In this document: positions 2,413 to 2,517 of the stretch, piece after piece
How positions within the stretch are numbered: the first letter of the stretch is position 1
How the letters are laid out: each line of letters opens with the position of its first letter
Source of the DNA: Candidatus Cloacimonadota bacterium
GTDB taxonomy: Bacteria > Cloacimonadota > Cloacimonadia > Cloacimonadales > Cloacimonadaceae
DNA length: 57,127 bases
Assembly: GCA_021206555.1 (NCBI GenBank)
Contig: JAJOKA010000227.1
Coordinates: 1 to 57,127 of the forward strand
Direction of reading: 5' to 3'
Program-made: the position numbers and the translations under genes
The notes under the pieces: generated by a model
The model's input: only the letters and a program-made list of their open reading frames with translations
Told to the model about the DNA's origin: nothing
Databases searched by the model: none

Positions 2413-2517
2413 GTGCTTGGTGCTTGGTGCTTGGTGCTTGGTGCTTGGTGCTTGGTGCTTGGTGCTTGGTGCTTGGTGCTTGGTGCTTAGTGCTTGGTGC
2501 TTGGTGTTTGGTGTTTG
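2413..2517. repeat. Tandem heptamer array (GTGCTTG) x15
   Basis: Fifteen head-to-tail 7-nt units start 1 nt after the TAA stop. Twelve are identical; the variants are GTGCTTA (2483) and GTGTTTG (2504, 2511). Confidence 0.95.

Follow-up and report, generated by a model that had tools for sequence, protein, structure and literature searches.

A strain-variable heptamer array behind a stop codon in a Cloacimonadota genome, probably a slippage-prone microsatellite with units common to palindromic cassette arms

We analyzed a window of 57,127 nt, which is the entire contig C136 of a Candidatus Cloacimonadota metagenome-assembled genome (MAG; 2.25 Mb, 227 contigs, 68% complete) and whose proteins place it in that phylum, the best relative being at 86% amino-acid identity. 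A beta-propeller gene with Reg_prop repeats and a FlgD_ig/T9SS-type C-terminal domain occupies positions 1–2412 of the plus strand and ends in a TAA codon (2410–2412; TAG in other strains). Directly behind it lies a tandem array of the heptamer GTGCTTG (2413–2520, plus strand), oriented so that the propeller gene's sense strand is the G/T-rich one, and about 100 nt separate the end of the array from the ATG (2622) of aroB, encoding 3-dehydroquinate synthase (2622–3599, plus strand; Pfam DHQ_synthase and DHQS_C). The propeller gene is split into four frames in the window, each with Pfam matches, and is an intact 819-aa ORF in independent assemblies. Compared with two assemblies that are otherwise 99.6% identical, the window differs between 1558 and 2224 by five inserted single bases and one 2-bp deletion; because the gene is intact in the independent assemblies, its frame breaks are probably consensus errors of the MAG rather than signs of a pseudogene. 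Past aroB, the convergent gap (3592–3640) is filled by spaced CATTTGTG-type repeats, a motif series that is also found upstream of rfbB (dTDP-glucose 4,6-dehydratase) in another strain (L195:405–450).

Tandem Repeats Finder (TRF) reported the GTGCTTG array with a period of 7, 15.4 copies, 97% matches, 0% indels and a score of 195. In letter order, the TAA is followed by ten GTGCTTG units, one GTGCTTA, two further GTGCTTG, two GTGTTTG and finally GTGGAGT. An earlier note on this DNA had described 15 head-to-tail heptamers that start at 2413 and abut the TAA, with variant units confined to the last third; TRF and direct reading of the letters bear out the former, and unit-by-unit reading the latter. 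The note had also held the array to be noncoding and neither a CRISPR nor a hairpin terminator, and these three exclusions stand: there are no spacers between the units, and a search of 2413–2621 for an intrinsic terminator (a G+C-rich hairpin followed by a T-run) found none. The unit is stop-free in all frames, and no promoter-like hexamers were seen flanking the array. That the unit lacks self-complementarity, as the note had stated, is correct for Watson–Crick pairing but not for RNA, which can pair weakly with itself through G·U wobbles; the RNA fold of the array does not surpass folds of shuffled sequences in stability (z = −0.94). The unit has no internal run of two or more G, GG occurring solely at unit junctions, and thus cannot form G-quadruplexes.

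No inverted partner of the array was found within 700 nt (the best 14-mer match reached at most 12 of 14 positions), and no ORF is enclosed; the array at 2413–2520 is solo, not an arm of a PF05635 cassette resembling a 23S rRNA intervening sequence (IVS). The minimum-free-energy fold of the RNA contains an imperfect hairpin (2511–2578, plus strand) between the last array units (GGTGTTTGGTGGAG) and a C/A-rich stretch, CTCCACAATCACGCC (2564–2578), and its GTGGAG…CTCCA pairing is retained in both haplotypes of the right flank; as a weak suggestion, this 15-nt stretch may be a vestigial second arm. Sequencing runs labelled as RNA (X25–X28) gave 2–4x contigs over the array flanks along with pure-repeat 37-mers, in which DNA carry-over is possible. 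A 3'UTR element, among the roles that the earlier note had proposed, is plausible.

The propeller–aroB locus was present in 20 public metagenomes from sludge, digesters, bioreactors, sediment and groundwater, with the array at the identical place in at least eight independent assemblies by JGI, ENA (SPAdes) and Logan, which stem from different studies. The earlier note had left the reality of the array to be checked in independent assemblies, and there it appeared with the same flanks, neither absent nor collapsed; Logan contigs break inside it because they are built with k = 31. Strain alleles were compared among near-identical homologues, namely independent assemblies with aroB proteins 97–100% identical. 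The locus carried 10 units in two of these (L189 and L194), 15 in the window, 16 in a group of four (L187, L188, L192 and L193), 16 with a different variant pattern in L190 and 18 in L185. Since unit counts differ between assemblies of one species, the locus is a variable-number repeat (VNTR), and the note's suggestion that the array might be slippage-prone is borne out by this series of 10/10/15/16/16/18 units. Roughly the first ten units are conserved across alleles. Additional units are found towards aroB, at the end away from the stop codon; the complete 10-unit array of L194 matches, letter for letter, the beginning of the 18-unit array of L185. The stop codon itself has two alleles, TAA followed by GTGCTTG, or TAG with its G serving as array base 1.

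Outside this species the array was not seen. Species of the same genus that have the propeller–aroB pair separate the two genes by spacers of 3, ~40 and ~100 nt, all array-free, and among the 232 species genomes searched in the phylum, this one alone contained (GTGCTTG)x4. Period-7 arrays of any unit numbered 0–6 per 100 kb in sampled relatives, versus about 7 here. At 80 loci around an unrelated gene no period-7 array was found, all of them being one orthologous locus that is array-free in the window too. The strain variation, together with the array-free spacers of the sister species, makes the propeller–aroB array a recent, species-specific gain and a VNTR rather than a conserved regulatory site.

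The array belongs to a large family within the MAG. TRF found 161 period-7 arrays of at least four copies, which merge to 155 loci and total 7.5 kb, versus at most 18 arrays at any other period; in a locally shuffled genome there were no arrays of at least four copies at any period. Copies per array range from 4 to 19 (median 5.6), with a median length of about 40 nt. The arrays fall into 44 canonical heptamer units, the commonest being AATTCTC and AAGCACC (the latter equivalent to GTGCTTG; 16 arrays each), AACGCAT (14), AACACCT (12) and ACACCTC (11). The GTGCTTG unit is common to the 2413 array and about 16 others, including the arms of a PF05635 cassette on contig C96. Outside crude ORFs lie 132 of the 161 arrays, and most of the others are in ORFs that merely read through the repeat; a contig end is no more than 200 nt away from 23 arrays, an indication that the repeats break short-read assembly. 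The earlier note had raised a phased protein-binding array as a possible role, which would require one sequence; with 44 different units in use, that role is unsupported.

Several members of the family lie in the window itself. A second same-strand array of the GTGCTTG family, which the earlier note had placed some 54 kb away, is present at 56862–56927 (plus strand) as GCTTGGT units with GCTGGGT variants (9.4 copies by TRF), and makes up the outer portion of a mosaic block of repeats. It is adjoined by 13 copies of AAATCGT/AAATTGT (56944–57032, plus strand), units found in 9 and 6 arrays genome-wide, and then by a palindromic TTAATCAAGCG core module (57048–57127), within which the contig ends and which recurs at C173:150–260. 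This module (TTAATCAAGCG...CGCTTGATTAA, flanked by CTCTCCC-TTGTGGCAG) is a many-copy palindrome that forms the centre of heptamer mosaics; other common core modules are TCGACACGnGACGTGTCGAATCCTA (contigs C217 and C104) and AGACGTTTCCACATTA (C114 and C173). A further array, with 10 copies of CAGGTGG/CAGGTTG (7852–7922, plus strand), begins 4 nt past the TGA of an RNB-domain exoribonuclease gene and is followed by a 10-bp hairpin (7918–7940). The 500-nt noncoding stretch after it (7923–8420) contains long imperfect palindromes at 8026–8093, 8102–8198 and 8230–8292, and an Rfam search of that stretch returned nothing at gathering score.

The scan of the genome and its relatives that the earlier note had called for showed the 161 arrays to be nonrandom relative to genes, in figures that rest on a crude longest-ORF gene map of an incomplete MAG (68%) with indel errors. 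Of 125 arrays, 36 came within 10 nt of the 3' end of a gene, versus 11.3 ± 3.1 under random placement within spacers, and within 60 nt of a gene 5' end the arrays were depleted (19 versus a null of 47 ± 5.7). Convergent spacers were enriched, holding 45 of the 161 arrays versus 15% of spacers. Orientation followed the neighboring gene: where an array lay 60 nt or less from a 3' end, the strand with G>C was the sense strand in 46 cases and the antisense strand in 9, and for arrays adjoining a 5' end only, the ratio was reversed (10:22). Two simple causes of this polarity were rejected. Orientation did not correlate with local GC skew (65:68), as a replication-strand cause would predict, and array-free 3' flanks were not G-rich in general (398:384, no skew). 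Among 44 arrays near a 3' end, 17 contain the stop codon; some units, TGAGGTG, TAGGTGT and AATTGAG among them, include a TGA or TAG when read in sense, and with such units the 7-nt period places a stop in every frame within 21 nt. The bias persists among arrays that start after a native stop (22:3). Neutral tolerance alone therefore leaves the orientation bias unexplained, and a directional process of some kind, or else selection, is at work. Canonical intrinsic terminators, consisting of a hairpin and a T-run, followed about 5% of gene 3' ends versus 1.7% of random windows; they were found downstream of 3 of 43 arrays, too few to judge whether arrays lie between stop and terminator.

Some of the same units build the arms of small-gene cassettes. 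The MAG has four PF05635 (IVS-protein/Avd-like) genes, all four of which lie between inverted tandem-repeat arms, with heptamer units in three pairs and 20-nt units in one (contig C116). The arms on C43 consist of CAGGTNN units, the family of the 7852 array, and those on C185 of CGAGATC/CATCTCG; the cassette on C96 (C96:1212–1670) has arms of TAGTGCTTAGTGCTTGG and (AAGCACC)n, that is, of GTGCTT units. PF05635 genes were found in 30 of 41 relatives, and the 28 loci sampled there were flanked by tandem repeats without exception, in 22 cases of period 7. Counting these 28 and the four here, about 27 of 32 PF05635 loci have significantly complementary flanks. Arm heptamers of the relatives fell within the 44 units of this genome in 7 of 27 cases versus 3.75% expected, and include AACACCT, AATTCTC, AACCTGC and AAGCACT. 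Read on the top strand, G exceeded C in the left arm of 30 of 32 cassettes and of each of the 11 paired modules that have no gene and unequal G and C counts; the polarity is therefore fixed, a 5' G-rich arm preceding a 3' C-rich arm. An inverted partner within 700 nt was found for 22 of the 161 arrays, versus 1 in the control, leaving 86% without one. A link to a reverse transcriptase is not supported, the genome's only reverse transcriptase being of the group II-intron type on C32, far from every cassette.

Comparison at rfbB shows turnover of cassettes between strains. The GTGCTT-armed PF05635 cassette lies upstream of this gene here, a PDDEXK_3 gene takes that place in a 94%-identical strain, and in an 86%-identical relative a PF05635 cassette lies downstream of rfbB; mosaic tandem-repeat arms with 7-, 9- and 10-nt units occur in all three neighborhoods (C96:1193–1872, L195:1–480 and L196:1115–1922). 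The sole PDDEXK_3 (PF13366) gene of this genome is located at C127:1546–2300, with arms of AAAGAGGA 8-mers in direct and inverted copies. A further array (C17:4804–4877) consists of ten copies of TTTTAGGG, which is also the unit of the Chlamydomonas-type telomere repeat, and the cassette arms of one relative (L168) of GGGTTTTAGGGTTTTGG; this resemblance is probably a coincidence of G/T-rich units.

Tandem repeats of heptamers have been known since 1990. The short tandemly repeated repetitive (STRR) heptamers of heterocystous cyanobacteria were reportedly described by Mazel et al. in that year, and we know of no function for them; the genome studied here resembles those of the cyanobacteria in having several heptamer units in intergenic tandem arrays, in a different phylum. 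Identity with STRR1 was rejected, its unit CCCCAGT occurring in only 3 arrays here, at chance level. The earlier note knew of no described bacterial element class to which the array could belong, and in this it was mistaken, since the class exists in the form of long simple sequence repeats (SSRs; PMC4679880) and of stop-codon heptamers (PMC4692102). With spacerless 7-nt units, an intergenic position, strain-variable length and a genome-wide excess of period 7, the 2413 array is a heptanucleotide long SSR of the STRR-like kind. As Mrázek 2007 is summarised in PMC4679880, heptanucleotides are the commonest long SSRs of most prokaryotes, with the proposal that slippage is favored by a polymerase footprint of 7 nt. 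In the same summary, the long SSRs of Mrázek, Guo & Shah 2007 match the arrays here in their head-to-tail 7-nt units, their excess of period 7, their mainly intergenic location, their variable length and their patchy distribution over phyla; compared with the SSRs described there, the present genome differs in its 44 unit types, no one of which dominates. As far as we found, Cloacimonadota seem to be missing from the earlier long-SSR surveys covered by that summary.

The closest parallel in placement is provided by the GGGAATC and GGGGA(C/T)T heptamers of Xanthomonas and Nostoc (Rehm et al. 2015; PMC4692102). These lie within 50 bp of a stop codon or overlap it with the G-rich strand in sense, run antisense if located upstream of a gene, seldom occur between divergent genes, are not kept in sister species, are mostly transcribed, and show no link to surface or adaptation genes (PMC4692102). 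The arrays of this genome follow the same stop-codon and sense-strand rule (46:9 at 3' ends, 10:22 at 5' ends), but GTGCTTG has no G-tracts and hence cannot form the G-quadruplexes on which the interpretation in that paper is based, and the four-unit preference of the Rehm heptamers is absent here (median 5.6, up to 19 copies). That the rule holds for units unable to form G-quadruplexes weakens the quadruplex explanation. TAACTGA direct repeats, described from marine Beggiatoaceae, cyanobacteria and Bacteroidetes (MacGregor 2015; PMC4679880), are likewise abundant intergenic heptamers, with a distribution that suggests horizontal spread; they differ in being a single unit in 2–6 copies just upstream of start codons, whereas the present genome has many units, in up to 19 copies, in arrays that keep away from 5' ends. 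For the cassettes, the nearest known likeness is the 23S rRNA IVS with an S23p/PF05635 ORF, for example in Coxiella (PMC4990558), which also places a small four-helix-bundle gene within inverted repeats able to form a long stem and is held to be selfish. The cassettes here differ from it in lying between protein-coding genes and in having arms of tandem heptamers, and the 2413 array is solo and geneless. The Avd protein of diversity-generating retroelements is a member of the Pfam family of PF05635 (PMC10053308).

We propose that the array is a slippage-prone heptamer microsatellite of the STRR-like long SSR family, probably non-adaptive and without a locus-specific role, which has its unit and its polarity in common with the arms of palindromic cassettes; on the present evidence we think this reading probable, well short of certain. 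Replication slippage would lengthen and shorten the array, the 7-nt register being the known preferred period in prokaryotes. Its persistence may reflect position, in that the stretch right after a stop codon would be safe for such a repeat and promoter or 5'UTR space would not, and it would be a passive passenger of a propeller–aroB transcript, as 3'UTR or intercistronic RNA, with no function particular to this locus. The repertoire of units and their fixed polarity would most likely derive from palindromic cassettes or modules with arms of those units, and solo arrays may have been seeded by cassette arms or be left-overs of them. Comparison of alleles and sister spacers documents an origin inside the species, in a short array-free spacer, along with change in length and units in common with cassette arms; with 86% of arrays partnerless, descent from cassette arms is something we infer from the common units rather than see directly. 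A bolder version, possible in our view but doubtful, holds that bacterial heptamer arrays, the solo one included, are arms, seeds or footprints of palindromic cassettes containing a PF05635 four-helix-bundle gene or sometimes PDDEXK_3, and that their origin may be templated rather than due to slippage alone. Fixed polarity and array growth distal to the flanking gene also fit the addition of repeats to the 3' ends of a broken spacer.

The strong polarity of the G-rich strand, which neutrality leaves unexplained, keeps two rival explanations alive. We regard as unlikely, though deserving attention, that the arrays are functional 3'UTR elements or transcription insulators that would shield genes from invading transcription, whether it arrives in antisense from beyond the 3' end or reads through from upstream: transcribed by the invading polymerase, the C-rich, G-poor strand would be an unstructured, rut-like Rho loading site, or a general RNA-binding protein would recognize the G/U-rich RNA of the sense strand. 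The arrays have a composition in common without having a sequence in common (44 units; sense strands with G>C outnumber their opposites 46:9 near 3' ends and are themselves outnumbered 22:10 near 5' ends), a pattern that fits a composition-reading factor such as Rho, whose gene is present in the genome; their enrichment in convergent spacers (45 of 161 versus 15%) points the same way, and canonical intrinsic terminators at just 5% of gene ends are rare enough that another mode of termination is needed. However, the median array, at ~40 nt, falls below the length of a typical Rho loading site, and array-free orthologous spacers in sister species together with a copy number that drifts between 10 and 18 are unexpected for a needed element. 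Cassette geometry alone, moreover, yields equal polarity. The other rival, which we consider improbable, treats the arrays as recombination targets for PF05635 or PDDEXK_3 cassettes with matching arms, or as the remains left after cassette loss. It can draw on the GTGCTT arms of the C96 cassette, on the differing occupants of the rfbB spacers (PF05635 here, PDDEXK_3 in the 94%-identical strain, the other side in the 86%-identical relative) and on units common to the cassette arms of distant relatives and the solo arrays here, but it would have just four cassettes account for 155 array loci, no recombinase is associated with them, and simple homologous recombination between inverted arms cannot delete a cassette.

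Two further explanations carry far less weight. The contingency locus suggested in the earlier note, in which array length would tune expression of aroB or the propeller gene by phase variation, might be expected from the strain-variable copy number and from the position about 100 nt upstream of the aroB start, and is nevertheless very improbable because the array lies past a stop codon, upstream of a housekeeping gene, and is missing in sister species. It is also neither in an ORF nor between promoter hexamers, propeller and aroB are only 3 nt apart in one relative, arrays shun 5' regions genome-wide, and Rehm et al. saw no link of heptamers to surface or adaptation genes (PMC4692102). An assembly artefact, whether from collapse or chimerism of the repeat, which the nearby indel errors of the MAG and the 23 arrays close to contig ends might have suggested, is refuted by the same array and flanks in JGI, ENA (SPAdes) and Logan assemblies of different studies, and we give it practically no credence.

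With this genome, the phylum Cloacimonadota is newly added to the list of heptamer-repeat carriers. What is new beyond the earlier heptamer papers is the enclosure of all four PF05635 genes by inverted tandem-repeat arms, one pair of them of GTGCTT units, along with the period-7 repeats that flank 22 of 28 such genes in relatives; the rest of the class was already described. Our literature search, which was incomplete and may have missed reports, found none on heptamer arrays with PF05635 cassettes or on heptamers in Cloacimonas. The tie of the unit repertoire to the cassette arms, seen in all four cassettes here and in most relatives, provides a concrete and testable hypothesis of origin. The period-7 arrays are, in addition, ready-made VNTR strain markers for a common digester bacterium, an uncultured wastewater species of anaerobic digesters and sludge. 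Elsewhere in the window, two cobalamin riboswitches lie on the minus strand (30996–31181 and 39200–39386), and a match to the Acido-Lenti-1 RNA lies at 46480–46525.
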